From a virus (Duplodnaviria > Heunggongvirae > Uroviricota > Caudoviricetes): a DNA stretch of 64,000 nt. This document shows positions 28,935 through 59,724 of this stretch, one piece after another. The notes under the pieces were generated by a model. The model was not told the origin of the DNA and searched no databases. It was given only the letters and a program-made list of their open reading frames with translations. The stretch lies in IMG/VR virus record IMGVR_UViG_3300036790_000265, positions 1-64,000 of that record; one strand, given 5' to 3'. Each line of letters opens with the position of its first letter. The stretch's first letter is position 1. A program made the position numbers and the translations under genes.

Positions 28935-29804
28935 TCATGCGGCGACCGCCGCCCGTTGCCCCGTGCGCCGCAACGCAGCCTGGAACGCGTTCTTGCCGAC
29001 CCTCAGCCGTTCCCGGGCCTGATCCCGCGTGTATCCCTGCGCCAGCAGCTCGGCGGCGTCCTCGGCCACGTCAGCCGCCCGGCGGGTGCGCCGGCCTGTC
29101 GGCTTCCAGCCTTCGGCCGGCCCGGCCGAGGGGTCATCGATGGTGTCGTCGTCCCACGCGAGCGGCGGCACCCACCCCCGCGCAGCCGCGTAGTTCCGCG
29201 CGTAGGACATCGCTGTCCGCTCGGCTCGTGTCCGCTGCGGCGGCGGCTGATCCCACAGCCGGTCGTAGAGCTCACGGACAGCTCGTGCCAGGGAGGCGGT
29301 GACGATGCCGCTCCGAACCGATCCACGGAGCCGTTCTTCCGGGCGACCCAGATACGCCGCTAGGACGGACTGGGGGTAGCCGACCGCTACGAGGGCCTGG
29401 ATACGGCGGACGGTACCGGCCGGTTCGACCCGCGCCCGGTAGCCGTAGGCGTTCAGCGTCGGCTTGACCGCGAGGATTCTGGTGGCAGTCTCGACGCGGA
29501 CCCGCTTAGCCGGGCCCATGATGTAGATAAGGCTGGACTGGGATAGTCCGGTCAGGGCGGACAGGCGCCCTTGGCTGATGCCAGCGGCGTCCAAGGCCAG
29601 GACGTGGTCGCGGACTGGTCCCGCGTCCGTGTAGGTGTTCCACCGGCCGTACGCCTTGGCTCGAATCCGCCGGTCCCGGGCGGCAGCCTGAGCGGCCCTG
29701 CACGGATCGCAGCGGCACCCGCGGCCTCGGATCCGGCCCGGTTCGGGGCCCCACGTGTAGCAACCGGTAGTGCCGTGCTGGCGGTAGGTGGGAGGCGCGC
29801 TCAT
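28935..29804 (-). CDS. HTH DNA-binding protein with N-terminal Cys cluster (289 aa)
   Basis: LSALTGLSQSSLIYIMGPAKRVRVETATRIL looks like an HTH; CYTWGP..CRCDPC; long N-terminal Arg/Pro extension rejected as a frame artefact. Confidence 0.45.
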   Translation of the reverse strand: MSAPPTYRQHGTTGCYTWGPEPGRIRGRGCRCDPCRAAQAAARDRRIRAKAYGRWNTYTDAGPVRDHVLALDAAGISQGRLSALTGLSQSSLIYIMGPAKRVRVETATRILAVKPTLNAYGYRARVEPAGTVRRIQALVAVGYPQSVLAAYLGRPEERLRGSVRSGIVTASLARAVRELYDRLWDQPPPQRTRAERTAMSYARNYAAARGWVPPLAWDDDTIDDPSAGPAEGWKPTGRRTRRAADVAEDAAELLAQGYTRDQARERLRVGKNAFQAALRRTGQRAAVAA

Positions 29805-32800
29805 GCGGTGGCCTCCGGGGTGTGGAGTATGGCCCGCAGCCGTGCCCCGATCCACTGGCCGACCTGCGGTGTGACGCCGTTGCCGTATCCGTCGACCTGG
29901 TCCCGCGCGCTGCCCCATACGACGAAGGAGCCTTTGTAGCCGTAGCCGGGGAAGTCGACGTCGAAGCCGCAGCCCCGGCCGACCTCGTGGGGACCCAGCA
30001 TCTTGAAGTACCAGTCCTCGAGTGGCAGGTCCCTGAGGGCTGCGGTGAGCAGCGCGGTAGTGTCGCGGCTGGTGAGCGTGCCGAACGGGTCGCTGACCGG
30101 GTGTGGCGCGGTGGCGTCGCTGCTGCGGCCGTTCTGTTTGAACCAGCCGGAGAACAGCGCCCCCTGCGTGATGGCCGAACCGACCACGGTGCCCAGCGGG
30201 TCGCTGAGCGGGTGGGTCCGGTACTTCGCCTCGTCGATCGAGCCGTTGTTCTTGATGGTGCCGCCCGCCGTGAGCAGGCCGAGCGTTTGACTGGCGGTTA
30301 CCGCAGGCATTGGGTCGGCCGGGCCGACTGGAGCGCTGGCCCGGCGAAGCGGGACAACGCCAGACGACAGGACACCGAGGCCGCCCGAGCCAGCGCCGCC
30401 GACGAGGGTCTGCATGGGCTCGGTCACGCTGCGGCTTGTGCCGTTGGTGCGGTTCGGCAGAATCCGCGCGGTCAGCAGGCCGAGGGTTTCCGAGCCGCCT
30501 TGCGTTGGCAGGGGCTCGTCTGCGCCGCGGGGGGAACCTTGGTAGTTGTCCACGGCAACTGCGATGGGGGGCGTCATCAGGCCTGTGGAGTTGGTTCCGG
30601 TTTGTGCCCACAGCGGCTGGTCGAGGCCGCGTGAGCGGCAGTTCGAGCCGGGCCGTTCGAAGGTGTGCCCGGCGGCGCCCATGATGACGCCAGTCGAGGC
30701 GATGAGGGCGGCCTTTTCGTGGGTGGTCGTCACGGTGTCCATCGGCCGGGTGATGTGCTGGCCGTCGCCGTTGTGACGGTGCGCGGGGACGACCGAGCCA
30801 GTCATGGCGACACCGGCAGTCTGGGATGTCATCGGCTGCCACGGGTGTCCGCCCGGGCCGGTCACGGCCGAAGCGGGCATCAGGACGAGAGGGAACTCGG
30901 CGGCCCGCTGGCGGCACCGTTCGGCACGCTCCATCGTCGAGGCGGCCAGCGGCTTGGCCCGGTCACCGATCCGGGTGCCGAGGTTGGTCAGGTCCAGCGC
31001 GTCCAGCGACGGGGACATGGGGGGGATGACCTCGGCGCGGCACCTCGGGCAGCGGTAGTCGTACTGTTCGCCGTAGCACACCTTCCCTGTGGCCGGGATG
31101 CCTGTACGCCAGGTCCAGACGGCTTCGACGACCTGATCGCAGCGGCTGCACCACGAGGGGGGCCGGTGTTCAAGGTCGGGCTTGGGCAGGCGCCGGTCCC
31201 AGAAGACGCCGAACCACCGGTTCCGGGACTGGGGCACTCCAAAGAACATCGAGTTCAGGTACAGGATCTTGTAGTCGTAATTGAGTTTGGTGAACTGCTT
31301 GAGCCACCAGCGGTAGGTGGAGCCGTCGCCGACCTTCCGCCGGCCGGGGATCGCTGGGCCCCAGGACTGGATCTGGGTGGTGCACTCGACGAGGATCAGC
31401 CGCGGGTGGTGGCGTTCGGCGTAGTGCAGGACGCAGTTATGAACGATCAGCCCATCGGCGACGAAGCTGTGATCCTCCTCCACCTCGATGTCGAAAACCT
31501 GGGCTTGGCGATTCTCGTCAATCACCTCGCGAACGACACCTACACACCGGCCGTTGATCGTGGCGATGGTTGATGTGCGGCGCTGCTGGGCCATCCACTG
31601 CAAGATCCACGCCGGGCGGGTGATGCCGGATCGGCCTTCGATGGTCCACTGCTCAGGCTTCCGGCAGCGGAGCGTCGGCCGGTACCCGAGACCCTGCAGG
31701 AGAAGTTTCATCCCGATCGCGAGTTTCCGGCTGACCGTGGCGCACGATCCTCGCCGACCGCCGAGGCCGGTCGCGCCATCGGCGGACAGATAACCTTCGA
31801 CTAGCGCCTTCCGGTATTCCTCGTCCATGCTCAGCGCCCACGCGGGAATCGTCTTACCGTGGGCTAGTTCGCCGAAGTGCTCCATCAGCCACCGGGCGAA
31901 CGGCCCGCTGCCACGCAGTTCGTAGCGGATTATGGTGGGGTCCTCATGGACCCGCGCAGCGGCCCACATGCCGTCGAGTTCCGCGCGCTCGGCGTGGCCG
32001 CAGCAGATGCCAACCATTACTCCGGACGGAGAGCAATGCCGGATCCATCCGTCGCCGAGCCACCGGCCGACAGTCCACCAGAAGTGATGGTCGTAAGCCC
32101 ACCCGTTAGGAGCAGGCGGAACGGCGCACTCCGGGAATTCGGTCGGCGACTGCCATGCATGGCCAATCAGATCGGCGGCGGCCGTCCAGTCCTCGGCACC
32201 GCTGAACACCCAGCCACGCCGGGTTAGCTCAGATGCCCGGGTCAGGAACTGGTGATCGGCAGTCACCTCGAGGGCGGTGTGCCCACGGCCCTTGACAGTG
32301 ATCACGCGGGAGCGGCGAGACATCGTGGCTGTCACTCGCCGCCACCGGTTCCGATGTGTTAGAACTTCGTCCCCGGCCGCCAGCTCCTCGATGGGGACCA
32401 TGCCACGTCGCGCCACCACGATGGTTCCTGCCGGGAAGCAGTTGGCGGTGGCCCGGTCCCGCTCGGAGCGGGTCACCCGCGCGTCGAAGTCCGGATCGTC
32501 GAGGTCGAACAGTGACAGCCTCTGCTCGTACGCCTTGATCGTGTTCGCCTGGGAATGGTTGACGCAGCTGACACCTGCGACCAAGAGATCGGCGGCGGGC
32601 AGATCGCGAGCGGAGTGGTAATCCGACGAGTCAGGGTCAACGAGGTCTGCGATCCAGTGTTCGGCGTGCGGGTGGTTGGCCTCGTGCACCTCGACTTTGT
32701 ACGCGTTGTGGTTGGCCGCCATGATCGTTGTGAAGCCGGCCATCTCGATGCCGCGAGTCAATCCACCGAAACCGGAGAAAAGATCAACGGCGATCAGGTC

Positions 32801-43824: not shown

Positions 43825-44673
43825 TCATATGATCAGATCCCGCGCGGCCCTGGTCAGCAGTTCCCGCGCACCGGCGCCCGTTTCGGCCGCGGCGAGCAGA
43901 TCGTCCATGATGTTGCCGTACCGCGAAGCCTCGGCGAGTTCCGGCTTCACCTCGGACGTGTAGGTCTCCATGATCACGAGGTCGTCCACCATCAGGAACC
44001 CGAGGATGGGCACCACGGCTAGTTCCCGGCCCGGTGGGATGACCCCGAACGTCACGTTGGCCAGCCCCGTCACCGTGAGCAGCCGGTCGATCTGCGCAGA
44101 CATCACTGGCACCGGGCACGTCAGGTAGCGGACCGCGGCCTCGCAGATCACGAACTCGAACGTCTTACCCGAGTCGTACAGCACTTCCTGCCGGCGCGCC
44201 CGCGCGGCGACCGCTTCCTCAACACCATCCGGGCTTTCCCCGAACCGGCGTGCCGATATCTCCATCTGGGAGCGGGCGTAGTCCGGGGTCTGGAGCAGGC
44301 CCGGGACTAGCAGCGTCTCGAAGTTACGGATGCGGGATGCCCCGCGCACGATCGTGTCGTACTCGGCTTGGAGCGCGGCGTGGCCGCTCCGCAGCCGCAG
44401 CCGCCATTCCCGGTACACGGACTGTGCCTCGTCCAGCAGCGCCAGCAGGTCAGCACGTTCGTCTGGCTGGCCGCAGGCAGTGACCCAGCCTGTGATGTCG
44501 GCCTCGGTGGGCATCTGGCGGCCGTTCTCCAGCTTGGGCACCTTGCTGCGGGGCCACCCCAGCTGGGCGGCAAGTTCGACACCAGTGAGCCCGGCGGTCT
44601 TGCGGATGCGCACCAGGCGCTCCGCGAGGCCGCCGGGCTGATTGAGCCATACTCCAGTCGGCTGCACGGTCAT
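43825..44673 (-). CDS. XRE-family HTH regulator with DUF5753-type C-terminal domain
   Basis: LVRIRKTAGLTGVELAAQLGWPRSKVPKLENGRQ; actinomycete Scr1-like architecture. Confidence 0.7.
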   Translation of the reverse strand: MTVQPTGVWLNQPGGLAERLVRIRKTAGLTGVELAAQLGWPRSKVPKLENGRQMPTEADITGWVTACGQPDERADLLALLDEAQSVYREWRLRLRSGHAALQAEYDTIVRGASRIRNFETLLVPGLLQTPDYARSQMEISARRFGESPDGVEEAVAARARRQEVLYDSGKTFEFVICEAAVRYLTCPVPVMSAQIDRLLTVTGLANVTFGVIPPGRELAVVPILGFLMVDDLVIMETYTSEVKPELAEASRYGNIMDDLLAAAETGAGARELLTRAARDLII

Positions 44674-44682
44674 CCCTGTTGA

Positions 44683-45222
44683 TCAGGCGGCGGCTGACGC
44701 CCCCGCCGGCGTGGCGTAACGGACTGCCAGGTCCCGCCATCGCTGGTACCGGGCAACCTCACCCGGCTCATTGATCAGCGTTTTACCATCGATCTCACCT
44801 GTGGCCGTGAACCGCATCACGATCACGGCCGCGTCGTCGAGCAGCCACCAGTCATGCTCCAGCGGCAACCCGGCCTCCCGCGCGCGGGAGCGTGCCAGGT
44901 AGCTGATCCGCTCCCCCGCCTCGGCGTGCCAGGGATCGGCTGCCATAAGCCACCGCTGGTAGTCGCTCGGCGGCTCGGCGAGGATGCGGACACGGCTCAT
45001 CACGCGGCCTTCGCGGGTGAGCTGGGCCACCTGGTCGAGCCACGGCCGCCACCAGTCCACCTCGAGCGGGTTGACTGTCCCGGTGGCGAGGAAGCTTTCG
45101 AAGTCGGCCCGTTCGTAGTCCAGGGCGTAGGCGTCGAGAGTTTCAAGCCGGAACGCTGAGCGGCTGTACCCGGCCAGGAGCCGGTTGAACTCTTCTTCGG
45201 TGACCGGGGTGCCGGACGTCAC
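44683..45222 (-). CDS. hypothetical protein
   Basis: GTG start in a GTGA overlap. Confidence 0.4.
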   Translation of the reverse strand: MTSGTPVTEEEFNRLLAGYSRSAFRLETLDAYALDYERADFESFLATGTVNPLEVDWWRPWLDQVAQLTREGRVMSRVRILAEPPSDYQRWLMAADPWHAEAGERISYLARSRAREAGLPLEHDWWLLDDAAVIVMRFTATGEIDGKTLINEPGEVARYQRWRDLAVRYATPAGASAAA

Positions 45223-45422
45223 GAGGTCAGGCCGTCGATCACGTCGGCGGGCACCCAAACACCGTCCTCGTCGTTGCCGAGGTCGCGCAGCTGGGCTCGT
45301 ACCTCGTCGGTCAGGCGCTTGCCTTGGATGACGTAGCCGCCTTCGGCGCTGGTCACCTTGTAGCGGGCTGGGCAATTGCCGGTCGCCGAGCTTGCCGTCT
45401 TCCACTGGAACTGGATCTTCAT
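45219..45422 (-). CDS. DUF397-like small protein
   Basis: FQWKTASSATGNCPARYKV resembles the DUF397 WRKSSYS..GNCVEV motif; GGAGGAG RBS. Confidence 0.4.
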   Translation of the reverse strand: MKIQFQWKTASSATGNCPARYKVTSAEGGYVIQGKRLTDEVRAQLRDLGNDEDGVWVPADVIDGLTS

Positions 45423-45582: not shown

Positions 45583-45840
45583 ATGTCCAGATCGGCAGAA
45601 CCGCCGAGAACACCCAATACGGCGAGATGGGCAGAAGCCTTGGACACTCCCCAGCAGGTCGAGGACGAGCTGCTGCCGCCTGCTGCGGTAGCCAAACGCT
45701 TCGGCGTGGATCCGCGCACGCTGCGCGGCTGGGCGGCGGCAGGGAAGATCAACGCCCGCCGCACGCTCGGCGGCCACCGCCGCTACCGGGCATCCGAGGT
45801 CAGCGCGTTGCTCGCCGCTACAGAAGCGGCCACATCATGA
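45583..45840 (+). CDS. xis: excisionase-family (MerR-like) HTH protein
   Basis: LLPPAAVAKRFGVDPRTLRGWAAAGKINARRTLGGHRRYRASEV. Confidence 0.7.
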   Translation: MSRSAEPPRTPNTARWAEALDTPQQVEDELLPPAAVAKRFGVDPRTLRGWAAAGKINARRTLGGHRRYRASEVSALLAATEAATS

Positions 45841-45924
45841 CTGGCCGCGCAAACAACAGCGGCCCAGGTGTGTCACCACCTGAGCCGCTCACAACCAGAA
45901 CCCCTGCTCGAAAGGGACTAGCCG

Positions 45925-46119
45925 ATGGCAACGGTAGCAATTCACCGCCCCCCAGCCAAGCATCATGTCGCCCGTGTGACCGCCGTCATGCTCCGGCGCC
46001 GGTTCAGGGAGGGCGACCGAGCCCCCTGCCACCGTACGGAACGGCTGGCCGACGACCCGCGGGAGCCCGCGAAGGTGTTCTGCCCCGAGGGCGGCGAACT
46101 GTACCTGCGGACGGCCTGA
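45925..46119 (+). CDS. small hypothetical protein
   Basis: AAAGGGA RBS. Confidence 0.35.
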   Translation: MATVAIHRPPAKHHVARVTAVMLRRRFREGDRAPCHRTERLADDPREPAKVFCPEGGELYLRTA

Positions 46120-46276
46120 TTACCCGAACCTCCCGATCGTCCCTGCCGGGCACCCGGCAGGGACCCGGAAGCCGTCAGGCGCGCGGACGCTGGGGCTTCG
46201 CCCCCGTCGCCCTGGCCGTGGCATCCACTCCCCGGGGTGCCTGCCGCGCGCCTGACGGCCGAAGGAGAACCGCCTG

Positions 46277-46810
46277 ATGGCCGGCAAGAACGGCGCAGGG
46301 AAGGCCCTGTTCGCAGCGTTCATCGTCGCCGGACTGGCCTCCGGAGCGCACGCTGGCGCAAGCACCGGCAGCCACAACGGAGGCGATCCCGACTCGATGG
46401 CGGCCACTCCCGCTGGTGCCGCCAACGCGACGAGCGCCGTCGCCTACGCCAAAGCGCAACTCGGTTGCCCGTACACGTGGGGTGGCACCGGGCCGTGCTC
46501 GGCCGGGTACGACTGCTCGGGCCTGGTGCAGCAGGCATGGGCGGCAGCTGGTGTGAGCATCGAGCGCACCGCTGACGAGCAGTGGAACTCGCTGCGTCAC
46601 ATCCCGGCCAGTCAGCGCGCGGTGGGGATGCTCGTGTTCGCGCCTGGGGCGGACGGTACATGGTCTGCACCGGGCCACGTCGGGATGCTTCTCGGCCGCT
46701 GGAGCGTGATCGAGGCTTACGCCACCGGCTACCCGATCAAGATCGTCTCGCTCAGCACCTTCGGCGCGAAAGCAGGCGGGATCATCGGCTACGCGGAGGT
46801 ACAGCAATGA
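46277..46810 (+). CDS. secreted NlpC/P60-family peptidoglycan endopeptidase
   Basis: Signal peptide; YAKAQLGCPYTWGGTGPCSAGYDCSGLVQQAWAAAGV...GHVGM. Confidence 0.85.
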   Translation: MAGKNGAGKALFAAFIVAGLASGAHAGASTGSHNGGDPDSMAATPAGAANATSAVAYAKAQLGCPYTWGGTGPCSAGYDCSGLVQQAWAAAGVSIERTADEQWNSLRHIPASQRAVGMLVFAPGADGTWSAPGHVGMLLGRWSVIEAYATGYPIKIVSLSTFGAKAGGIIGYAEVQQ

Positions 46811-47250
46811 CCCGCCTGCGCGGGGCCGCCGCCGCGGCCGTCGTCGGGATCACGCTGGCCGCAGTGTCGCAAAGCCACGGCGGCCACCAGGTCTTGACGC
46901 ACGTCGCCGCGGCCATGCAGCAACCGGGCACCAGTTCCACCAGCCCGGCCGCGAACAAGGCTCTCGCGGACCGGATGGCGGCCGCGGCCGGGTGGGACAG
47001 CCGGGAGATCGGCTGCCTGAACGAGGTCTGGCAGCGCGAGTCCGGGTTCCGGGTCACGGTGTGGAACTACCAGGGCGCGGACGCTTACGGCATCCCGCAG
47101 GCGAACCCCGCCGACAAGATGGCCAGCGCCGGCCCGGACTGGCGCACTGATCCCGCGACCCAGATCAAGTGGGGCCTCGGCTACATCAAGGATCTCTACG
47201 GCTCGCCCTGCGGGGCCTGGTCGCACGAAAAATCGCACGGCTGGTATTAG
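46807..47250 (+). CDS. secreted lysozyme-like / transglycosylase-like protein
   Basis: Signal peptide; CLNEVWQRESGFRVTVWNYQGADAYGIPQANP. Confidence 0.5.
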   Translation: MTRLRGAAAAAVVGITLAAVSQSHGGHQVLTHVAAAMQQPGTSSTSPAANKALADRMAAAAGWDSREIGCLNEVWQRESGFRVTVWNYQGADAYGIPQANPADKMASAGPDWRTDPATQIKWGLGYIKDLYGSPCGAWSHEKSHGWY

Positions 47251-47287
47251 GCCAGCCGGCACCAACCAAGGAAGGGAACCACCCGCC

Positions 47288-47539
47288 ATGTCTGGCACCA
47301 CCACCGCAGTTGCACAAAAGCTGCATCCGGTCGTCCTGACCGCGCACAAGGTCACGCTCACCGCGCTGGCCCCGGCTAAGCACGCCGTGACCAACGCGTG
47401 GGCCGACCAGCCTGGCCACCCGCACATGACCCCGAACGAGGGGGCCGTTCTCGCCGGCGTGATCCTGCTCCTCATCGTGATCGGGGTCATCTTCGCCATC
47501 TCCACCGCCATCTCCACCGCCATCGACTCTCGCCGCTGA
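47288..47539 (+). CDS. small membrane protein
   Basis: TM LAGVILLLIVIGVIFAI. Confidence 0.45.
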   Translation: MSGTTTAVAQKLHPVVLTAHKVTLTALAPAKHAVTNAWADQPGHPHMTPNEGAVLAGVILLLIVIGVIFAISTAISTAIDSRR

Positions 47540-47557
47540 TCTTCGAAGGAACACCTG

Positions 47558-47884
47558 ATGGCTACCAGTGCTGCCGACCGCGCGGCCAACCGCGCCGAGT
47601 CGGTCGAGGTTGCCGTCAGGAGGCTCCTGGCCGAGGGCAACCCGCACGCGGCGCTGAACCTGGCGGTCGGGACATTCCAATCCGAGGCCGCCAAGGTCCG
47701 CCGCCGCCGCCCAGCCGACGCGGCGCTCATCGACGCCGAGCTGGCCGGGTCGCTCCTCGCGCTCGCGGCCCAACTCCACACCTACAAGCCGACCCGGCCA
47801 GCCGGACGCTCTCGGGTACCGGGCCCGGCTGACCTGCTCGCGATGCTCGACTCAAGCCTGGGAAAGGGGCAGACTCATGGGTGA
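47558..47884 (+). CDS. hypothetical protein
   Basis: GAAGGAA RBS. Confidence 0.45.
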   Translation: MATSAADRAANRAESVEVAVRRLLAEGNPHAALNLAVGTFQSEAAKVRRRRPADAALIDAELAGSLLALAAQLHTYKPTRPAGRSRVPGPADLLAMLDSSLGKGQTHG

Positions 47885-48371
47885 CCAGCTACCAGCCCTG
47901 CTGAGTTTCCTTCACGATGGGGAGACCTCTCCTGAGCCTGCCGCCCCGGCCGCGCCGGCCACAGACCCGGCGCCGCAGGCCACGCCCGCGGTGGCGTTGC
48001 GGGGTGGCCAGTTGAGCACGGGCGAGCAGGCGCGGGCGATCATGGAGCTGGCGTGGCGTAGCAGTCGCCGCCGCTGGCTGGACACCGTACGCCGGCAGGG
48101 CGGCGTCGTGAACTGGCTGATGTCCACTCAGCCGCCGAGCGTCCTCGACCAATGCGAGTACGCGCAGTCGCGGGCATGGGTTCCAGCCGGCCACGAAGGC
48201 AAGTTCGCCGAGAAAGAGGGCGTGATCTTCCACGCCACGATCGGCAGGGGCGGTGTCGCGCTCGGCAACGCCATCTCGGCTATCTGCTCGCGCCAAACCT
48301 CCTTCTGGATCGCGTTCTTCGCGTTCCTCCTCCTCGCGGTGACTGTGACCGCACTCATTCTGTTCGCCTGA
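47877..48371 (+). CDS. membrane-anchored hypothetical protein
   Basis: C-terminal TM. Confidence 0.45.
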   Translation: MGDQLPALLSFLHDGETSPEPAAPAAPATDPAPQATPAVALRGGQLSTGEQARAIMELAWRSSRRRWLDTVRRQGGVVNWLMSTQPPSVLDQCEYAQSRAWVPAGHEGKFAEKEGVIFHATIGRGGVALGNAISAICSRQTSFWIAFFAFLLLAVTVTALILFA

Positions 48372-48402
48372 CCAGCGGACCACCTCATCGTCTTAAGGAC
48401 TC

Positions 48403-49047
48403 GTGTTTGCCATGACCCCTGTGGCTTTTCTCGGCATAGGCGCAGCCGCCTTCGGCATCTGGACGTGGGCGTACCAGAAGATGCCCCGGTTCACCTGCGT
48501 GATGCTGCTCCTGGCCGGGTTCCTGCTCACGATCGGCGTTCCTGTCCTCCTGGACGCGCTCGCCCGCGCAATCGCCGGTAACGCCGGCACCATCGTTCTC
48601 GGCATCGTTGATCTGTGCGGCCTGTGGAGTTTCTGGCACGAGGTCGTCCGCAGGCACCTGCACCACCGGATCCGGACCCCGGCTCTGTCGCTGGTGCTCG
48701 GGGTGGCGCTCGTGTTGTCGTGGGCCAGCCTGACCAGCCTGCTCAGCGAGGCCGTGCACAGCCCCGTCCAGGCGGGGAGCGCGCTCAGCCACGCCACCAC
48801 TGCGGTACGTTCCGGCCACGCCGCCGCAGCGGTAACCCCGGACAAGCAAATGATCGTCCTGGTCGCCGCGGCTGTGTTGCTGGCTCTGCTGGTGATCGGC
48901 GGGTTCCGGGCCGAACGTGGCGGCCGTGGCCGCAGTTCCGCCCGCGGCGGTGCTAGCCGGGGCGGCAGCCCGGTCGCGAGCAGGATCCCGGTCGCTCCGA
49001 GCGGTGGCCGCCGGCCCGCCGCGCTGCCCGGGGGGAAGCGCCGGTAG
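48403..49047 (+). CDS. polytopic membrane protein
   Basis: 4-5 TM segments. Confidence 0.5.
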   Translation: MFAMTPVAFLGIGAAAFGIWTWAYQKMPRFTCVMLLLAGFLLTIGVPVLLDALARAIAGNAGTIVLGIVDLCGLWSFWHEVVRRHLHHRIRTPALSLVLGVALVLSWASLTSLLSEAVHSPVQAGSALSHATTAVRSGHAAAAVTPDKQMIVLVAAAVLLALLVIGGFRAERGGRGRSSARGGASRGGSPVASRIPVAPSGGRRPAALPGGKRR

Positions 49048-51183
49048 ATGAACAGCCGCTGGCACGACCACGACAACGATCAAGACGACGATCAGGCTGA
49101 GCCGCTGCCGCCGCCGCGGAGCGAGCTTCGGGCGCTCGTCGACCAGCACCGCGCCATCCTCACCCCGTTCGCGTGGATGGCCGCGGCCGAGCTGGTCGCG
49201 CTGACCGCCTGGGGGGTCCTGCACGGACTCGGCAGCCTCCTCCAGGTGATCATCGCTGCCGTGGTCGCGCGGCTGATCATCTGGCGGCGGACCCGGAGCC
49301 GCAGGAAGGGACACGGCAGCCGGACTCTCGTCTGGGCTCTCGGGTCGGCGTGGATGCTGATCGCGACGGTGGTCGGCCCGAGCCTGGTCGGCCAGCTCGT
49401 CCTGCTCGTCCTGCTCGTGTTCGGTGGCTCTATCGCGTCGGCGAAGCACTGGCTCAACAACCGGGTGCACCACACCGGACCGCGCACCCTCCGCGGCGAC
49501 ACCATCGACGACGAGGTCCCACCCGCTGACGATGACGTACCCGGTCGGCCTGTGCTGCATGTGGTCGCCGGGGAGCCGTACTCGAACCCGGTCGTACCCG
49601 CCGCCGGACCTGTACCCGCGAGCGCACCTGCGGGTGCACCCGGGACCGTACCCGCACCCGAACCTCCCTCGGGTGCGGGTACGGTCCAGACGGCCGGGTA
49701 CACCGCACCCGGGACGGGTGCGCTCAAGCCAGGTACGGCCCCGAAAGCACGCACATCGGCGTCGGACAGCATCCGCGAAGCGATCCAGACCGTACTCGAC
49801 GACTTCCAGGTGTCCGCCGACGTGTCGGGGTACGTCCGCGGCCCGGCGGTCACCCGGTACGAGATCGTCCCGGCTCCGGGGGTCAAGGTCGAGAAGGTCA
49901 CCGCCTTGTCCAAAAACATCTCGCTCGCGGTGAAAAGCGGCGCCGTGCGGATCCTGTCCCCGATCCCGGGGAAGTCCGCGATCGGGATCGAGATCCCCAA
50001 CACTGACCGTGAAGTAGTCAGCCTCGGTGACATCCTCCGCTCTCCCCTCGCGGCCTCTGACCATCACCCGCTGCTGGTCGGGCTAGGCAAAGACGTCGAA
50101 GGGCACGTGGTGGTGGCCAACCTCGGGAAGATGCCGCACATCCTGATCGCCGGCGCGACCGGCGCGGGCAAGTCCACCTGCATAAACACGTTGATCGTTT
50201 CCCTGCTGGCCAGGGCCACACCTGAGGAGTTGCGGCTGATCCTGATCGACCCGAAGCGGGTCGAGCTGGCCGCCTACCAGGGTGTGCCGCACCTGCTGAC
50301 CCCGATCGTCACCAACCCGAAGAAGGCCGCTGAGGCGCTGGAGTGGGTAGTCGGCGAGATGGAACGCCGCTACGACGCGATGGCCAGGCACGGGGTACGG
50401 AACATCACCGAATTCAACGTCAACGCGGGCAAGGGCATCCTGGTCGACCGCGAGACGCACAAGCCGGTCAGCCCGTACCCGTATCTGCTGGTGATCGTGG
50501 ACGAACTCGCCGACCTGATGATGGTCGCGCCGCGGGACGTGGAGGATTCGGTCGTCCGGATCACCCAGCTCGCCCGGGCGGCCGGCATCCACCTGGTGCT
50601 GGCCACCCAGCGGCCCAGCGTGGACGTGGTGACCGGCCTGATCAAGGCGAACGTGCCGTCGCGGCTGGCGTTCACCACTTCCAGCCTGGCGGACTCCCGC
50701 GTGATCCTGGACCAGCCCGGCGCGGAGAAACTTGGCGGCCAGGGCGACGCGCTGTTCCTTCCGATGGGTGCCAGCCGGGCGATCCGGCTGCAAGGCGCGT
50801 TCGTGAGCGACGACGAGATCGCGGCGGTTGTGCGCCAGTGCATCGCCCATGCGCCCCGGATGCCGCAACTCGAGCTCGTACCCGAGCCGGTACCAGTCAG
50901 CGGCCCGGCTGAGGCGCCGGTGGATGACACCGAGGTGGAGTTGCTGGCCACGGCGGCCGAACTGATCATCAGTACGCAGTTCGGTTCGACGTCGATGTTG
51001 CAACGGAAACTGCGGGTCGGGTTCGCGAAGGCTGGGCGGCTGATGGACCTGCTGGAGTCGCGGGGGATCGTCGGCCCGAGCGAAGGCTCCAAAGCTCGCG
51101 ACGTACTCAAACTGGCCGAGGAAGCTGCCGAGGTGGCTGATCGCATCCGGGCCGGCGAACCCGAGGTCAGGAGCGCAGGATGA
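49048..51183 (+). CDS. FtsK/SpoIIIE-family DNA translocase (Streptomyces TraB-like)
   Basis: N-terminal TMs; [19 protein letters not shown]; [12 protein letters not shown]; [15 protein letters not shown]; C-terminal gamma wHTH. Confidence 0.9.
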
Positions 51184-51485
51184 CCCCGGCAGAGCTGATG
51201 GCCGCTGGCGTGCTGGCCGTGTTCATCCTGGTGGCCGGCTCGCGCCGGGTCCGGCACAGCGGCGCGGGCGCTGTCGCGTTCCTCGGCGCGGTCGCCTTGG
51301 TCGCGGTCGAGATCGCGAAGCACCAGCAGCCGGCCGCGGCCCGGCCGGTCGTCGTGACCCGCACAGTCGTCGAACACACCACGGCGAGTCACCCGGTGCT
51401 GTCGGGCTGGCCGCTGGTGGTGGTCATCGGCGTGGCCCTGGTGGTCGCGCTCGTCATCATGCTCAACATTCGATCAGGAGAATAG
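51180..51485 (+). CDS. membrane protein
   Basis: ATGA overlap with the FtsK-like gene; 3 TM. Confidence 0.5.
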
Positions 51486-51496
51486 GCAAGATCATC

Positions 51497-51901
51497 ATGG
51501 GACTGTTCGGCCGACGAACCCGCAGTAACCCGGCCGCCGAAGCCGCGCAATGGCAGCCAGAAGAGTGGATCGGGACTTCCTTGCGGTACCTGAACGCTGC
51601 CCTGCCCGGGGCATCGGTCGATATCACCGCCGAGCCTGTCAACTACGAAGGCCCGTGGCGCGTGGAAATCCGGGCCGTCTGGACGGCTCCCGGGTGGCAG
51701 CACGAGCAGGGGGAACTCCTGGCCCTTGTCTACGACACCGACGAAGACGCAGAAGCGGACGCTGCCACGATCATGAAGTGGCTGGGCGAAGGCTGCGCCC
51801 CCGCCGAGTTGCTGCCGGACCTGCATAACGATCAGATGCTTGCACTCATCTGCGGGTGGGACGGTCAGCCGTTCTCCGTGGCCGAAGCCGGAATGATCTG
51901 A
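51497..51901 (+). CDS. tandem paralog 1 (MGLFGRR...WDGQPFS family)
   Basis: Shares N-terminal MGLF.R and C-terminal (F)EWDG.PF with the three following genes. Confidence 0.6.
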   Translation: MGLFGRRTRSNPAAEAAQWQPEEWIGTSLRYLNAALPGASVDITAEPVNYEGPWRVEIRAVWTAPGWQHEQGELLALVYDTDEDAEADAATIMKWLGEGCAPAELLPDLHNDQMLALICGWDGQPFSVAEAGMI

Positions 51902-52344
51902 TGGGACTGTTCAGCAGGAACCGCAGCGCCGCACCCCAGTGGAGGCCGGTGATTGGCGCCAGCGTGGATGTGACCGGTTACGAAGCGGACATGAACGATG
52001 AAGGGCAAGTGCCCGACCGCGCCTACCTGGTGATGTTCGGGATGGTTCATCCCGACGGTGCAGTGATCACTATCTGGACGTACGCCAGCTACACGGGCGA
52101 CGGCCGTTACTGTGTCAGGCTGCGTTACCGGTACACCTCCGAAGCTCACCCTGACTGGTCATTCACAGGGCACGCAGGTGACCCGCTGGAGGAGACCTAT
52201 CCTGACCCAGCCACCGCGGAATACGAAGCGGCAGCGTGGTCCGACAGCCTCGCAAGCGGGAGCCAGCCCACCATGGCCAACCTTCCGGAGGTCTTCGACT
52301 GGGACGGTCAGCCGTTCTCGGCGGCCCCGGCCGAGGTGATCTGA
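51901..52344 (+). CDS. tandem paralog 2
   Basis: TGATGGG junction; ITIWTY..Y...Y..RY core. Confidence 0.6.
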   Translation: MGLFSRNRSAAPQWRPVIGASVDVTGYEADMNDEGQVPDRAYLVMFGMVHPDGAVITIWTYASYTGDGRYCVRLRYRYTSEAHPDWSFTGHAGDPLEETYPDPATAEYEAAAWSDSLASGSQPTMANLPEVFDWDGQPFSAAPAEVI

Positions 52345-52766
52345 TGGGCCTGTTCGGGCGCACCCGCCAGGTCCAGGTGCAGACGGAGACCTGGCAGCCC
52401 CAGCCGGGGATGGGCCAGATCGCCAAGTCCTACGACATGGACGACGACCGCACCGAAGGCGGCAGCGCCTATGGGGTCACATTCGCCTTGGATGGCTCAC
52501 CGGGCGCCCAGATCACCGTCTGGACCTACATCACCCGGGCGCCGAGTCACTGGCCAGGCAAGTACACGGTCGGCTACCGGTGGGATCACATCTACCGAGG
52601 CCAGTCTGTGCAGACGTTCTACGGCGCGGACGAGCAGCCGTACAGGCGCTGGTCCGATTGTGATGAGGCTGCCCGCGCCGCCGCGCGTCAACTCGCCGAG
52701 ACTGTCCGCACCGTCCCGGCCGACGATGACCTGCCGTTTTTTGAGTGGGACGGGAGGCCGTTCTGA
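52344..52766 (+). CDS. tandem paralog 3
   Basis: As above. Confidence 0.6.
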   Translation: MGLFGRTRQVQVQTETWQPQPGMGQIAKSYDMDDDRTEGGSAYGVTFALDGSPGAQITVWTYITRAPSHWPGKYTVGYRWDHIYRGQSVQTFYGADEQPYRRWSDCDEAARAAARQLAETVRTVPADDDLPFFEWDGRPF

Positions 52767-53215
52767 TGGGGTTGTTCAACAGGCAACGGTCGGTGGCCGT
52801 CGAAACTGATTGCGCTGTATGGCAGCCGGTCAGCAGCCAGATCGACACGGTGCCCGGCTGCGAGATGGACGATCAGGGCTGCGCCGGCGACTACGCCTAC
52901 GGTGCCAGATTCGCCCTAGCCAGCGCCCCAGGCGCCACGATCACTGTCTGGTGTTATCCGGTCTACGGACCGCTGGACATGCTCGGGACCTATCAGATCG
53001 GCTACCGGCGCGACTACCACTTCGACCCCGGCGCTGGCCTTCCGTGGCACGCATCAGATTACGACGGAGACGCCGAGTTCTACGAGAGCCTGGATGAGTG
53101 CGCTGCGGTTGCTAGAGAGTGCGCGGTAACGCTCGCGGTGACACGCCGAGATGGCCTCACCTCGGACCCTGACGACAACAACCTGTTCTTCGAGTGGGAT
53201 GGGGTGCCGTTCTGA
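52766..53215 (+). CDS. tandem paralog 4
   Basis: As above. Confidence 0.6.
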   Translation: MGLFNRQRSVAVETDCAVWQPVSSQIDTVPGCEMDDQGCAGDYAYGARFALASAPGATITVWCYPVYGPLDMLGTYQIGYRRDYHFDPGAGLPWHASDYDGDAEFYESLDECAAVARECAVTLAVTRRDGLTSDPDDNNLFFEWDGVPF

Positions 53216-53255
53216 TGGGAGCGGGTGTGGTGTCGAATACGTTTGCGACGACACG

Positions 53256-53275
53256 CCGGCGGGGGAGCCCGCCGG
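53256..53275 (+). terminator. hairpin CCGGCGGG-ggag-CCCGCCGG after the paralog array
   Basis: 8-bp perfect inverted repeat. Confidence 0.35.
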
Positions 53276-53360
53276 GGTGGTCTGCCCTGTTTGACTGGCC
53301 GGGTGGCCGCAGCAACCCCTCCCCTGCCGACCCCGATCGGCCCCTCTCGGGGCTTCTACG

Positions 53361-53410
53361 CGCGGGTATACGCACACCCGCACACCCGCACACGCGTATG
53401 CGCGCGTAGC
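53361..53410. repeat. three 8-bp direct repeats CGCACACC/CGCACACC/CGCACACG flanked by an imperfect inverted repeat (GTATACGC...GCGTATGC)
   Basis: Read directly; candidate cis site (clt/iteron-like). Confidence 0.5.
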
Positions 53411-53465
53411 ACCGACCGACCGCGATTTTCAAGCATCCCCGCCCTGTAGAACCGAGGAGACCCCG

Positions 53466-54401
53466 GTGGACACCGGCAAGTTCATCTCTTTCATCTCTCG
53501 GCACGTCGGCCGCGAGCGCCTGGCGGCCATCTGGAAGCGGCGCCCGCAGCGGACCCGGCCCGCGCCGGGCACCATTTCTCCTGGTGCGAAGAAGGCGATC
53601 CTTGCGGCCACCGCCGGCGTGGTGACCGCGGTGGCGTCGTTCGCGGGGATCCAGTCGTACAGCCATATCTACTGGCTGGCCGCGACTCACCGGCAGGACC
53701 GGTTGGACTCTGCCCTGGCGCCTCTGTCGGTGGACGGCCTGATCGTGGCGTTCTCGCTGGTGATCTTGTTCTTCTCCGTCACCGGCCGCCCAGTGCCGTT
53801 CCTGGCTCGCTGCGCCCTGTGGCTCGGCGTCGGTGTCACCGTCGCCGCGAACGTCGCGTTCGGAATCCCGGCCGGGATCATCGGCGCGCTGGTGTCGGCG
53901 TGGCCAGCGGTCGCGTTCGTGCTCTCAGCCGAGGGCCTGATGATCCTTGTACGCGCGGCGACGGGTACGCGCATCGCACCCGCGCACTCGAGTGCACCCG
54001 AACCGGGGTACGATTCGGCCGCACCTGTACCCGTACCCGTACCCGGAGGCGCGCTCCGCACTTTCGAACCCGCACCCGCTGCACCCGTACTCGACACCAC
54101 CGCCGAACCCGCGTCTGTACTCGCCAGCGCACCCGCTCAGCGTGGCCGCACTCAGCGAACTCGACAGGTGCAGCGCACCCCGAACGGAGACTCGGCCGTA
54201 CCCGACTGGGCGACGACCTACCCGGGGGCGTACGCCAACCGCCACATCCCGTCAATCCGCGTGATCCGCGACAAGATGGGTGTCGGCCAGTCCACGGCGC
54301 AGGTCCACCAGGCCCATTACCGCGCCCAACTCGACGCAGAAAGGGGTCGCGGCGACGACGCGGAACAGGAGGGCGAGCCGGCGATGGGCGCCGCCTCGTA
54401 G
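53466..54401 (+). CDS. DUF2637-like membrane protein with C-terminal HTH
   Basis: GAGGAG RBS + GTG; FAGIQSYSHIYWLAATHRQDRLDSALAPLSVDGLIVAFSLVIL; 4 TM. Confidence 0.5.
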   Translation: MDTGKFISFISRHVGRERLAAIWKRRPQRTRPAPGTISPGAKKAILAATAGVVTAVASFAGIQSYSHIYWLAATHRQDRLDSALAPLSVDGLIVAFSLVILFFSVTGRPVPFLARCALWLGVGVTVAANVAFGIPAGIIGALVSAWPAVAFVLSAEGLMILVRAATGTRIAPAHSSAPEPGYDSAAPVPVPVPGGALRTFEPAPAAPVLDTTAEPASVLASAPAQRGRTQRTRQVQRTPNGDSAVPDWATTYPGAYANRHIPSIRVIRDKMGVGQSTAQVHQAHYRAQLDAERGRGDDAEQEGEPAMGAAS

Positions 54402-56197: not shown

Positions 56198-57166
56198 TCA
56201 GGCCGCCTCTGGCTGCTCGGCCGCGGCCTGAGCGAGGCGGGCGGCGGTCGCGGCCTTGGTCTCGGTGTAGACGGTCGCGGCGACGTAGTGCGTGCCGGTG
56301 TCTTCCCGGTACACGCAGGCGCCTTCGACGCCGGCCGGGATGGTGAGCACGGGCCAGGTCCCCTGCGGGTCCACGGTGACCGCGACCGGGTCGAGGTCGG
56401 TGCCGTGCCAGTTCACCGACAGCGACGCGGACGGGAACGTGCCCGAGGAGCCGAACACGGTCGTGAACCGGATCGCGTTGGCGCCGTCTGGGATGGCGAT
56501 GGGCGTGGGGGTGCCCTTGGGCAGTAGCAGCATGGTTGGCTCCTCCTGGTCGAGCACGGCAAACGGAATGGACGGCGGCGGTGGCGGGTCGGTGTGGGTC
56601 TCCGTGTAGGTGGCGAGCCAGGCGCGCAGGTCGTCGACGGTGCCGTTGAACACGTCGAGATCGACGGGGCCGCTGATCGAGTACTGCCAGAACCGCCACG
56701 TCTTCCACGGCCCGACCGGGCCTGGTGGGACGTCACCTGGCCACGTGGCCCACAGGTCATATCCGCCGCAGGACCACAGGCCCTTGGCGACCGACAGGTC
56801 GGTGTAGACGAGGACTGGGCAGTGTGGACCGGCCAGGTACGCGGTCCGGTCGCAGAACGCCTTGACGGAGGTGTCGGTGACTCCCGGGTAGTCCGACGCG
56901 ACGACCGCGAGCATGTCACCCGGGCGCAGGCCCCGGGCTTTGACCGTGGCGACGAAGAAATCCGCCTGGGCTTCGGCTGACGCGTCGGTGAGTTCGTGGT
57001 AGGCGCCGCGGGGGATGTTGGCGCGGGCGATACCGGCCCAGTTGTCGGTGAACTTCTCGTCGACGTAGTCGGGTCCGTTGGTGGCCTTGCACCATCCGAA
57101 GTTCTCGCCGGCCCAGGTGGTGACTGCCTGGTAGTCGGACCGGTCTTGACCGTGTGCGCTGGTCAT
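56198..57166 (-). CDS. GH25 muramidase (endolysin LysA-like) with C-terminal domain
   Basis: GQDRSDYQ...CKATNGPDYVDEKFTDNW...GAYHEL matches GH25 DxSxxQ / KATEG / YHF motifs. Confidence 0.75.
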   Translation of the reverse strand: MTSAHGQDRSDYQAVTTWAGENFGWCKATNGPDYVDEKFTDNWAGIARANIPRGAYHELTDASAEAQADFFVATVKARGLRPGDMLAVVASDYPGVTDTSVKAFCDRTAYLAGPHCPVLVYTDLSVAKGLWSCGGYDLWATWPGDVPPGPVGPWKTWRFWQYSISGPVDLDVFNGTVDDLRAWLATYTETHTDPPPPPSIPFAVLDQEEPTMLLLPKGTPTPIAIPDGANAIRFTTVFGSSGTFPSASLSVNWHGTDLDPVAVTVDPQGTWPVLTIPAGVEGACVYREDTGTHYVAATVYTETKAATAARLAQAAAEQPEAA

Positions 57167-57183
57167 GGGCACCTCCTCGGGGG

Positions 57184-58029
57184 TCACGCGGAGCATTGGG
57201 CGCCGACCGACTGGAGCGCGGCCAGCGCGGCGGCAGGAGGCGGGAAGACGTATTCGTGTTGGCTGCCTTCACCGCCTTGCCCCCAGAACGTGGCGATCAA
57301 GGTCCCGTTGCGGCTGGTCAGCCAGTCCCAGCAGGAGGTGAACCAGCCGCCGGTCGGGTCAATGCTGTTGGTTTCGCTGATGGCCGGGCGGGCGTCCGGG
57401 GCGACGGTCAGGATGTCTTGCCACGCCTGCCCGAACACGGCCTCGGGGGTCGAGTTGCCGTCCGGGTCGTAGCCGTCCATCGAGTACCAGCCCAGCCCAG
57501 GGCAAATCCACGGCGTGACGTCCTGACCAGCCCGGACCGGACTCGTCGAGATGCATTCGCCGTACAGCACGCCCGGGTTGACCTGCTGCACCAGGTTGTG
57601 CAGGTACCCGTGCAGGTCGGTGAGCTGGGCAGCGGACGAACCGGACAGCGATTGGTACGGGCCACCTGGCCGGTTCGCTTCCTGCCAGCCGGTCAGCCAC
57701 GACCCTTCCGGGGCCTGCTCGATGTAGGCGCTCAACTGCGACTTGAGCGTCCCGGCCAGGGTCATGGCCGGGTCCGGGTCGAAACACACCAGCGCGGTAG
57801 CCCCGGCCGGGACCGGGTTAGCCGGGTTACCAGGCCATTTCACGGGGACGCCGTTGCCGCTGCTGTCGGCGAACACCTTCACCCAGGTCAAGCCGTCCAG
57901 CGACGGGGAAACCGCGGCGTAGGCGGTCAGGTTCACCCCGAACGGGACCCGGACGCTCGCCGACGCTTCCGCGGTCGAGGAGGTGCCGGCGGCCGGGTCG
58001 TCGACCTGGACTGGGACGGTGAGGATCAC
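57184..58029 (-). CDS. hypothetical protein (possible hydrolase)
   Basis: ORF. Confidence 0.4.
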   Translation of the reverse strand: MILTVPVQVDDPAAGTSSTAEASASVRVPFGVNLTAYAAVSPSLDGLTWVKVFADSSGNGVPVKWPGNPANPVPAGATALVCFDPDPAMTLAGTLKSQLSAYIEQAPEGSWLTGWQEANRPGGPYQSLSGSSAAQLTDLHGYLHNLVQQVNPGVLYGECISTSPVRAGQDVTPWICPGLGWYSMDGYDPDGNSTPEAVFGQAWQDILTVAPDARPAISETNSIDPTGGWFTSCWDWLTSRNGTLIATFWGQGGEGSQHEYVFPPPAAALAALQSVGAQCSA

Positions 58030-58908: not shown

Positions 58909-59724
58909 TCAGCACCCGGCCGGGTCGCACACGGCGTAGCTGTTCACCTGCGCGCCTTTGCCGCCCCGCCAGAGCTCGAACCCGGCCTCGACGTCGGCGA
59001 GCGCCCACCCGGCGGGCAGGAACCCGAGGTTTTCGGTGTAGGCCACGAACGGCCCGTAGCCCAGGCCGGTGACGCTCGTCCGGTGCGCGGTGAGCACGTA
59101 GATGACGAGCGCGACTGTGTGGGCCGCGTTCGTCCAGGAGCCGTAGACGTCGAAGGTGTGGCTGCCGATCCGCACGTCCGTGGCCAGTTCGCTGCCTGGG
59201 GTGACGCCCCGTGAGTCCAGGAACACCATGATCTCTGTCTGCGGTCCCGGCCTGCTCGCGCCCGGGGGCGTGAAGAACGTGTCGAAGTCCAGGTCCCAGA
59301 CGCCAGCGCGTGGCAAGGTGGCCGACATGCTCAGGTGAACCGGGTCGCGGGTGCTGGTGAAGTCCGCCGCCGGGATGGGCAGCCCGGACCGGGGTGAGAT
59401 CGCCGCGCCATAGCCGTGGTTGCCCCGGTAAATCGAGGCGTACGCCGCCGGGGCGCTGCCGGTCGGGGTGTCCAGGGAGCTGGACTCGACGGTGAAGCTG
59501 GTGCCGCCGTCGCTGCACACCTTGTAGGGGGCGTTCGAGTTGTACTCGTTCCCCGAGAACTCGTAGACGTGGCCATTCGGTGAGGTGACCGGGTAGATCT
59601 GGGACTGGTTGCCGTTGCTGGTGCAAACCTGCGAGGTCGCCGGGGTGACGCTGGCCTGCGCAGGCGCGGCGAGGGGCAGGATTGCCAAGGCAGCACAAAG
59701 TGCCGCCACGAGGCGGGTACGCAT
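58909..59724 (-). CDS. secreted GH12-family glycoside hydrolase
   Basis: Signal peptide MRTRLVAALCAALAILPLAAPAQA; QTEIMVFLDSRGVTPGS...RIGSHTFDVYGSWTN matches the GH12 E[IL]M[IV]W block. Confidence 0.6.
   Translation of the reverse strand: MRTRLVAALCAALAILPLAAPAQASVTPATSQVCTSNGNQSQIYPVTSPNGHVYEFSGNEYNSNAPYKVCSDGGTSFTVESSSLDTPTGSAPAAYASIYRGNHGYGAAISPRSGLPIPAADFTSTRDPVHLSMSATLPRAGVWDLDFDTFFTPPGASRPGPQTEIMVFLDSRGVTPGSELATDVRIGSHTFDVYGSWTNAAHTVALVIYVLTAHRTSVTGLGYGPFVAYTENLGFLPAGWALADVEAGFELWRGGKGAQVNSYAVCDPAGC

Follow-up and report, generated by a model that had tools for sequence, protein, structure and literature searches.

The 64,000-nucleotide stretch analysed here (the window; positions 1 to 64,000 of the IMG/VR virus record IMGVR_UViG_3300036790_000265) carries four consecutive genes, c1 to c4, which encode soluble and strongly acidic proteins (about 140 amino acids, aa) from a family that has not been described so far. 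The four genes form one operon with a gene encoding an FtsK-type DNA translocase, and the window is part of a large temperate tailed phage of high-GC soil bacteria. An FtsK-type gene was also detected upstream of the family genes in nearly all genomic contexts recovered. Based on this association we tentatively propose that the four proteins are accessory subunits of a phage-borne DNA-translocation complex, with a role similar to that of the Spd proteins of Streptomyces.

Four old paralogs in a tandem array

The array consists of the following genes:

51497-51901, + strand: c1, 134 aa, the most diverged paralog ("type C")
51901-52344, + strand: c2, 147 aa, "type A", its start overlapping the stop of c1 (TGATG)
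52344-52766, + strand: c3, 140 aa, "type B", its start overlapping the stop of c2
52766-53215, + strand: c4, 149 aa, "type B", its start overlapping the stop of c3

A preliminary description of this DNA, made from the sequence alone, had reported four diverged paralogs which begin with MGLF(G/S/N)R and end with WDG(Q/R/V)PF, and both motifs are indeed common to all four proteins, the second one at or near the C terminus. The ITxWxY core motif, which had also been ascribed to every copy, is missing in c1. Likewise, the TGATGGG junction described for each start applies to c2, c3, c4 and the open reading frame (ORF) that follows them, with TGATG stop/start overlaps at the c1/c2, c2/c3 and c3/c4 junctions; c1 starts at CATCATGGG, 11 nt past the stop of a 101-aa gene.

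According to pairwise blastp comparisons (database size set to 1e8) c3 and c4 share 41% identity (E 8e-25), c2 and c4 31% (E 4e-10) and c2 and c3 30% (E 2e-8). Among the copies c1 pairs with c2 alone, and only weakly (31% over 90 aa, E 0.3). Its product has the N terminus MGLFGRR and the C terminus WDGQPFSVAEAGMI; it lacks the DMDDDG segment found in many members of the family, has one predicted strand fewer and carries extra C-terminal helices. The best relatives of c1 in the family set are P0151 (E 5e-8) and P0099 (E 1e-7), which are 27% identical to it over about 160 aa and also contain its extra segment before the WDG motif. Because of these matches, and because its AlphaFold model has the same layout as that of c4, c1 is counted as a genuine family member.

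At the DNA level the copies resemble each other only over short stretches at either end of the genes, and the number of synonymous substitutions per site (dS) of 1.2-1.6 indicates saturation of the synonymous sites. The copies are thus true, old and diverged paralogs and not the result of an assembly duplication, which the preliminary description had named as a possible artefact. The ratios of nonsynonymous to synonymous substitutions (dN/dS) of 0.4-0.65 are little informative under this saturation.

Many spurious ORFs arise in GC-rich DNA, and the GC content at third codon positions of c1, c2 and c4 (0.77) is slightly below that of the neighbouring genes, so that the array might be taken for chance ORFs, or else for a duplication introduced by assembly. 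This explanation, to which we assign next to no probability, is already refuted by homologues in many independent metagenomes (E down to 1e-39), by the coding-like GC content of the codon positions, by identities of just 30-41% between the copies and by the confident AlphaFold2 models of the proteins. Furthermore, a contig from a second sample (L014) has the same genes, as judged from position and product length, beside an identical 709-aa gene.

An identical 20-nt stretch, TGGGACGGTCAGCCGTTCTC, was noticed over the WDGQPFS codons of c1 (51856-51876) and c2 (52299-52319), the products of which are otherwise about 30% identical. It includes a GGT glycine codon, which would presumably be uncommon at such a GC content. 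Local gene conversion between the two adjoining copies is possible. The G-rich codons of the WDG motif may also double as the ribosome-binding site of the next gene.

Sequence, chemistry and predicted fold of the protein family

An initial search with the four copies identified six further proteins, and a profile built from these ten sequences was run against 1.84 billion protein cluster representatives. With a threshold of E<=1e-3 the family recovered in this way has 146 clusters, 89 of which also pass E<=1e-10; the proteins are nearly all 130-170 aa long. An alignment of 86 members shows conservation of an N-terminal M-G-[LI]-[FL]-x-R-R-R, of a W-x-P motif, in many cases of DMDDDG, and of a core rich in strands and a helix rich in alanine. 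The W-D-G is invariant, with x-P-[FW] after it, and half of the members stop three residues past the WDG.

The family is very acidic, with a median isoelectric point (pI) of 4.26 and a median net charge of -13; the pI values of the products of c1 to c4 range from 4.05 to 4.91. Neither a hydrophobic or membrane segment nor a signal peptide was predicted in the four proteins, so that they do not qualify as surface or entry-exclusion factors of the usual type, a role considered in the preliminary description. A Tat or other signal peptide at the conserved N terminus was rejected in view of the lack of a hydrophobic stretch after it.

The earlier statement that the proteins contain no known domain is in agreement with the database searches. 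None of the 86 members matched a Pfam or NCBIfam model, the family profile matched no PDB sequence and no PADLOC match was obtained for c1 to c4, while the PHROGs gave a single marginal match, for c4.

The AlphaFold2 models of c4 (predicted local distance difference test, pLDDT, 83.8; predicted template modelling score, pTM, 0.76) and c1 (pLDDT 85, pTM 0.76) agree in their layout of a strand meander and a helix. Confidence differs along the models, the mean pLDDT being below 50 over the first ten residues, which form a free, disordered N-terminal peptide, and above 90 in the core. The predicted structures are strand-rich (β-meander) with one main helix and place the WDG motif at the C-terminal end.

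Structural searches in three libraries did not provide a confident fold match, nor was any SUKH/Imm-like fold among the matches. The recurring top matches were the coat protein fold of leviviruses (MS2-like) and the WGR domain, which have a short hairpin, an antiparallel strand meander and a C-terminal helix in common with the family. The models differ from WXG100 proteins, the substrates of type VII secretion, which are helical hairpins of about 100 aa with the WxG in the turn, whereas the family is strand-rich with its WDG at the C-terminal end. The multi-ATPase EccC/EssC proteins encoded beside WXG100 genes are also unlike the ATPase of the window, which consists of one motor and a DNA-binding gamma domain.

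Natural head-to-tail fusions of two family copies were found in P0083 and P0082; in both of them the second copy is without the N-terminal peptide.

The family profile also weakly matched a divergent InlB B-repeat domain (PF18998) in the large surface proteins P0117, P0123, P0130, P0142 and P0144, the likeness following the pattern ITV..A.P..G.V.G.G.Y.VG and then W.F.GW. With at most 13 bits per repeat, an hhalign probability of 24% and no direct match of any family member to PF18998, this link is unconvincing. The N terminus presumably resembles the N-terminal helix of PspA/Vipp1 and the C-terminal DGxPF the C-terminal tip of SSB.

The FtsK-type translocase and its gene module

The array belongs to a module on the + strand (45640-54401) which is flanked by two minus-strand arms and comprises, besides c1 to c4, the following genes:

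49048-51183, + strand: FtsK-type DNA translocase, 711 aa, with N-terminal membrane segments followed by FtsK_alpha, the FtsK_SpoIIIE motor and FtsK_gamma
51180-51485, + strand: 101-aa protein for which three membrane segments are predicted; the gene separates the translocase gene from c1 and overlaps the FtsK stop with its start
45640-45840, + strand: MerR/HTH_17 protein
46277-46810, + strand: NlpC/P60 hydrolase
46807-47250, + strand: SLT-like transglycosylase
47288-47539, 47558-47884 and 47877-48371, + strand: three small proteins, one membrane segment being predicted in two of them
48403-49047, + strand: protein with five predicted membrane segments
53466-54401, + strand: DUF2637 membrane protein of 311 aa for which four membrane segments are predicted, the last gene of the module

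The translocase had been described as TraB-like. However, the FtsK model recognises it with 401 bits, whereas only 67 of the 800 bits required by the plasmid TraB model are reached, and the alpha, motor and gamma domains identify it as FtsK-type. Nor does the array follow it directly, as had been stated, since the gene for the 101-aa membrane protein lies in between. The overlap of the FtsK stop with the start of this gene, the 11-nt gap in front of c1, the TGATG overlaps and the lack of any terminator-like site from the FtsK gene to the end of c4 nevertheless place the array genes in one operon with the FtsK-type gene and couple them translationally to one another. A homologue search with the five-segment membrane protein gave no named relatives.

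Three genes are oriented divergently from the module:

43825-44673, - strand: HTH_31 and DUF5753 regulator
44683-45258, - strand: DUF6879 protein
45219-45422, - strand: small protein

Homologues of these genes were detected at the same position in two other family-carrying contigs, L005 (1670-3642) and L006 (321-1983), with a DUF397 gene nearby in L005. They may represent the control region of the FtsK module.

Related loci and recurring subtypes

Genomic context could be recovered for 12 independent cases, the window and 11 other contigs, among the approximately 146 clusters. An FtsK-type gene is located upstream, with zero to three small genes in between, in 11 of these 12 contexts (the window, L001, L002, L003, L005, L006, L009, L013, L015, L016 and the contig of P0010); the remaining contig, L010, ends 336 nt upstream of the family gene and is uninformative on this point. 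This supports the functional tie to the translocase gene suggested in the preliminary description, and the family therefore probably works with FtsK. The order of hydrolase, membrane-protein and FtsK genes recurs in L001, L005, L006, L013, L015 and L016. Signs of a phage carrier extend to further loci, with a terminase and a portal gene 5-10 kb downstream in L009 and with L013 (48 kb) and L016 (113 kb) being IMG/VR viral contigs.

A local profile search detected five family copies in L013, three in L006 and two each in L003, L005 and L010; all other loci contain one copy each, some of these contigs being short. The largest array is that of L013 (6248-9784), where five copies lie 3' of the FtsK gene with two or three unrelated small ORFs interleaved.

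The individual copies of the window have relatives in other elements. While c2 is 46-51% identical to P0020, P0014, L013_7203 and L003_1008, it shares only 30-31% identity with c3 and c4; c4 reaches 47-53% identity with P0005, P0006 and P0007, which stem from other contigs. The similarity between c2 and c4 is consequently lower than that of either to proteins of other elements. The nearest relative of c3 is c4 (41% identity). P0099 and P0151 form a group with c1 and with the copy that comes first in L006, and the succession of types C, A and B is apparently common to the window and L006. As judged by these sequence comparisons, the copies represent old subtypes which recur across the other family-carrying contigs examined, in disagreement with a recent diversification, and the array appears unlike a fast-diversifying arsenal. 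Taking the old subtypes, their shared order and the fusions together, the paralogs are suggested to have distinct and complementary roles, acting side by side.

Diverged small paralogs in tandem are a typical feature of immunity loci, and the copy number of the family varies from one to five between elements. The array might accordingly provide immunity against polymorphic toxins, or exclude related elements, as had been suggested before. We consider this very unlikely: no toxin-like gene was found nearby, the flanks encoding FtsK, membrane proteins and DUF2637; the structural searches and PADLOC gave no hint of an immunity protein; exclusion would need a membrane or secretion signal, which the proteins lack; and the subtypes are old and common to several elements instead of diversifying locally.

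The family was not found in tblastn searches with c2 and c4 against 50,697 GenBank phage records and 72,556 PLSDB plasmids. A megablast search with the region matched the FtsK gene alone, on four plasmids, the downstream genes of which are not members of the family. Two subfamily alignments, used for motif scans of 185,579 species-representative genomes, revealed no relatives, a result limited by the patterns used; a metagenome scan detected at least one locus.

A relic fifth copy and a repeat cluster downstream of c4

Two features were found in the gap of 250 nt that follows c4:

53215-53409, + strand: relic of a fifth (type B) copy, of which the TGATGGG junction and about 24 residues of the C terminus (nt 53233-53304) are left, the core being deleted
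53356-53409: imperfect inverted repeat enclosing three tandem 8-bp units, CGCACACC, CGCACACC and CGCACACG, at 53371-53394

The degenerate fifth copy presumed in the preliminary description thus exists as a relic, since its residues 7-30 (FATTRRRGSPPGWSALFDWPG) align to the final 24 positions of the c4-type profile with 14.5 bits, a score equalled by none of 5000 shuffles. As a gene it does not persist: the GC content of its codon positions (0.68/0.71/0.74) is not coding-like, and the stretch is probably non-coding today.

An inverted copy of the 8-bp unit is located at 53221-53229. Over the whole window the unit is not enriched (12 matches observed versus 15 expected). Clusters of GCACCCG-type units are also present directly 3' of the family gene in L001 (5705-5760) and L009 (1191-1235), so that such clusters occur in 3 of 9 loci. 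The units after c4 fit the consensus of the 9-bp repeats in the clt locus of the plasmid pJV1, CCGCACA[C/G][C/G], as quoted in PMC3583192, and a translocase recognition site is therefore suggested, although the evidence is thin with 3 of 9 loci. The cluster is possibly a cis-acting site and may be regarded as a candidate for either a clt-like recognition site of the translocase or an operator.

The repeat cluster directly after the array, together with the small size, the solubility, the very low pI and the presence of several diverged copies in a phage, would also suit anti-defence or host-takeover proteins. In such a scenario the proteins would be DNA mimics or blockers of host enzymes comparable to Ocr, ArdA and Ugi, with one host target per paralog, and expression beside a site resembling a transfer origin would bring them into action first after entry into a new cell. 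The family shares strong acidity and small size with these DNA mimics, but no relation to Ocr, ArdA or Ugi was found in sequence or fold, and there was no anti-defence match in PADLOC or PHROGs. Moreover, anti-defence genes are usually variable accessories, whereas members of this family constantly accompany one FtsK lineage and fall into old conserved subtypes. The N-terminal peptide is kept in all paralogs, which points to a common partner. An anti-defence function therefore seems unlikely, even though it ranks first among the alternatives to a role with the translocase.

The carrier element is a temperate tailed phage

The preliminary description had assumed a plasmid or an actinomycete integrative and conjugative element (AICE) of Streptomyces. 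The gene content of the window, which is part of a contig of about 100 kb, includes:

156-1676: large serine integrase
10237-11409: RtcB ligase
27464-28831: helicase
29801-32761: methyltransferase-like protein, 986 aa
38037-39167: RecT
56198-57196: GH25 endolysin

The genes for RtcB, the helicase, the methyltransferase and RecT are part of a long minus-strand block, and the right arm contains the GH25 endolysin, an amidase-like protein and further minus-strand genes. The second-sample contig L014 (SRR11833918), the neighbouring genes of which match those of the window in order and size next to the identical 709-aa gene, extends past the end of the window with two genes of 378 and 1680 aa and with a tape-measure gene. 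Due to the serine integrase, RecT, the GH25 endolysin and the tape-measure gene just past the window, the element is a phage and not a plasmid or AICE, in line with the empty tblastn search of the plasmids.

Two further genes are listed as observations in their own right:

58909-59724, - strand: GH12-like protein with a hydrophobic N-terminal stretch, its gene surrounded by those of small membrane proteins in the region that separates the tail genes from the endolysin, an odd content for a lysis region
11645-13405, - strand: 586-aa P-loop ATPase with weak matches to a terminase large subunit family and to a PHROG of no assigned function (E ~1e-9)

Since the P-loop ATPase is encoded in the early-gene arm, it is probably not the packaging terminase.

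Comparison with known systems and proposed role

Small accessory genes which are co-transcribed with FtsK/TraB-type translocases are a known kind of gene in mobile elements of actinomycetes. The spd genes of Streptomyces comprise three to seven small and diverse genes, organised around an FtsK-like motor gene in operons with overlapping stop and start codons, and their products interact with TraB and with each other in directing intramycelial spreading (PMC4447253). The Spd proteins of pSVH1, pIJ101 and pSAM2 are so diverse in sequence that homologues are hard to assign, and they work together with membrane proteins and peptidoglycan-interacting proteins (PMC4447253). The array resembles the spd genes in the small size of the genes, the overlapping stop and start codons and the position beside a translocase gene. 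It differs from them in being carried by a tailed phage, with no plasmid match by tblastn, in the motor, which is FtsK-type with a gamma domain and not TraB, in consisting of paralogs of a single family and in encoding soluble, acidic products. Of the comparison with spd drawn in the preliminary description, the form of the operon thus stands, while the plasmid or AICE carrier and the TraB motor do not. We do not claim membership in the spd group, which is defined also by its need in pock formation and intramycelial spreading and by contacts of the proteins with TraB and one another at the membrane, and consider the likeness a functional analogy.

Elements combining phage and transfer genes are represented by the Streptomyces plasmid-phage pZL12/phiZL12, which has a size of about 90 kb. 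The tblastn searches with c2 and c4 yielded nothing in the plasmid and phage collections, but the presence of pZL12 among those records was not checked. This element is reported to combine genes for phage particles with a major tra gene and adjacent genes needed for conjugal transfer (as cited in PMC3583192 and PMC4487206). The FtsK-like gene of the Mycobacterium phage JuicyJay (Omegavirus) encodes a protein 51% identical to the translocase of the window over the motor domain; this protein of 442 aa is however motor-only, and the annotated neighbours do not include wall hydrolases.

Against this background the proteins encoded by c1 to c4 may serve in the cytoplasm as accessory or adaptor subunits of a DNA-translocation complex in the membrane, with a Spd-like role, a reading which we favour tentatively and which is drawn by analogy. 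The complex would be formed by the FtsK motor, several small membrane proteins, the two peptidoglycan hydrolases and the DUF2637 membrane protein. Through the conserved basic N-terminal peptide MGLFxRRR the copies would be docked either on the membrane or on one partner common to them, while their acidic core could contact basic surfaces of the motor or of other proteins, and the different paralog types might act jointly as hetero-oligomers.

Several points weigh against such a role. Paralogy, family membership, operon layout, synteny with FtsK, the predicted fold and charge and the phage context are shown here, whereas the association with the motor, the hetero-oligomers and the function in DNA transfer are inferred. 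Genomic context covers just 12 of the approximately 146 clusters. The motor of the window is not TraB, and the DUF2637 gene is not detectably conserved in most of the related loci. The C-terminal motif, which is modelled with fairly high confidence, may have a structural and not a docking function. The characterised Spd proteins SpdB2 and SpdB3 are membrane proteins, and to our knowledge Spd proteins do not form paralogous arrays. Furthermore, we know of no function assigned so far to phage-borne FtsK genes, although such genes have often been noted in actinobacteriophage genomes.

The tight coupling to the FtsK-type gene could as well be explained by regulators or inhibitors of translocases, which would gate the FtsK pump of the phage or block FtsK-like proteins of the host at the septa, with changes in septation, sporulation or chromosome segregation in infected or lysogenic cells as the consequence. 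Their acidic surface could bind the basic, DNA-binding gamma domain, and publications on Streptomyces phages tie FtsK-like and WhiB-like genes to host development (PMC13587820). This explanation is purely inferential. It leaves unexplained why several old subtypes are kept together or fused, and it does not account for the wall hydrolases and the many membrane proteins of the module. We regard it as rather improbable and place it behind the anti-defence proteins or DNA mimics and ahead of immunity or exclusion, the latter being without positive support.

Returning to the adaptor role, a more far-reaching version would be that one lineage of large tailed temperate phages of mycelial actinobacteria carries a complete Streptomyces-style apparatus for the transfer of double-stranded DNA. 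It would comprise the FtsK-type motor, the clt-like 8-bp repeats, the wall hydrolases, the membrane proteins and the MGLF...WDG adaptors. In this complete form the proposal seems doubtful, with a chance well below that of the adaptor role itself.

Implications for phage biology

The protein family is undescribed and so is, as far as the literature found is concerned, its FtsK module in tailed phages. A conserved module around a phage FtsK gene, with the family as its constant companion, offers concrete candidates for interaction and deletion studies. If the proteins turned out to be anti-defence factors or FtsK regulators instead, they would still represent a new family without a described relative. 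If a complete transfer apparatus were present, it would move the phage genome between hyphal compartments or cells without virions, the array coupling the motor to its partners or its cargo. Phage DNA moved between hyphal compartments in this manner would link phage biology to the FtsK-driven conjugation of Streptomyces and would mean viral spread in multicellular bacteria without lysis.

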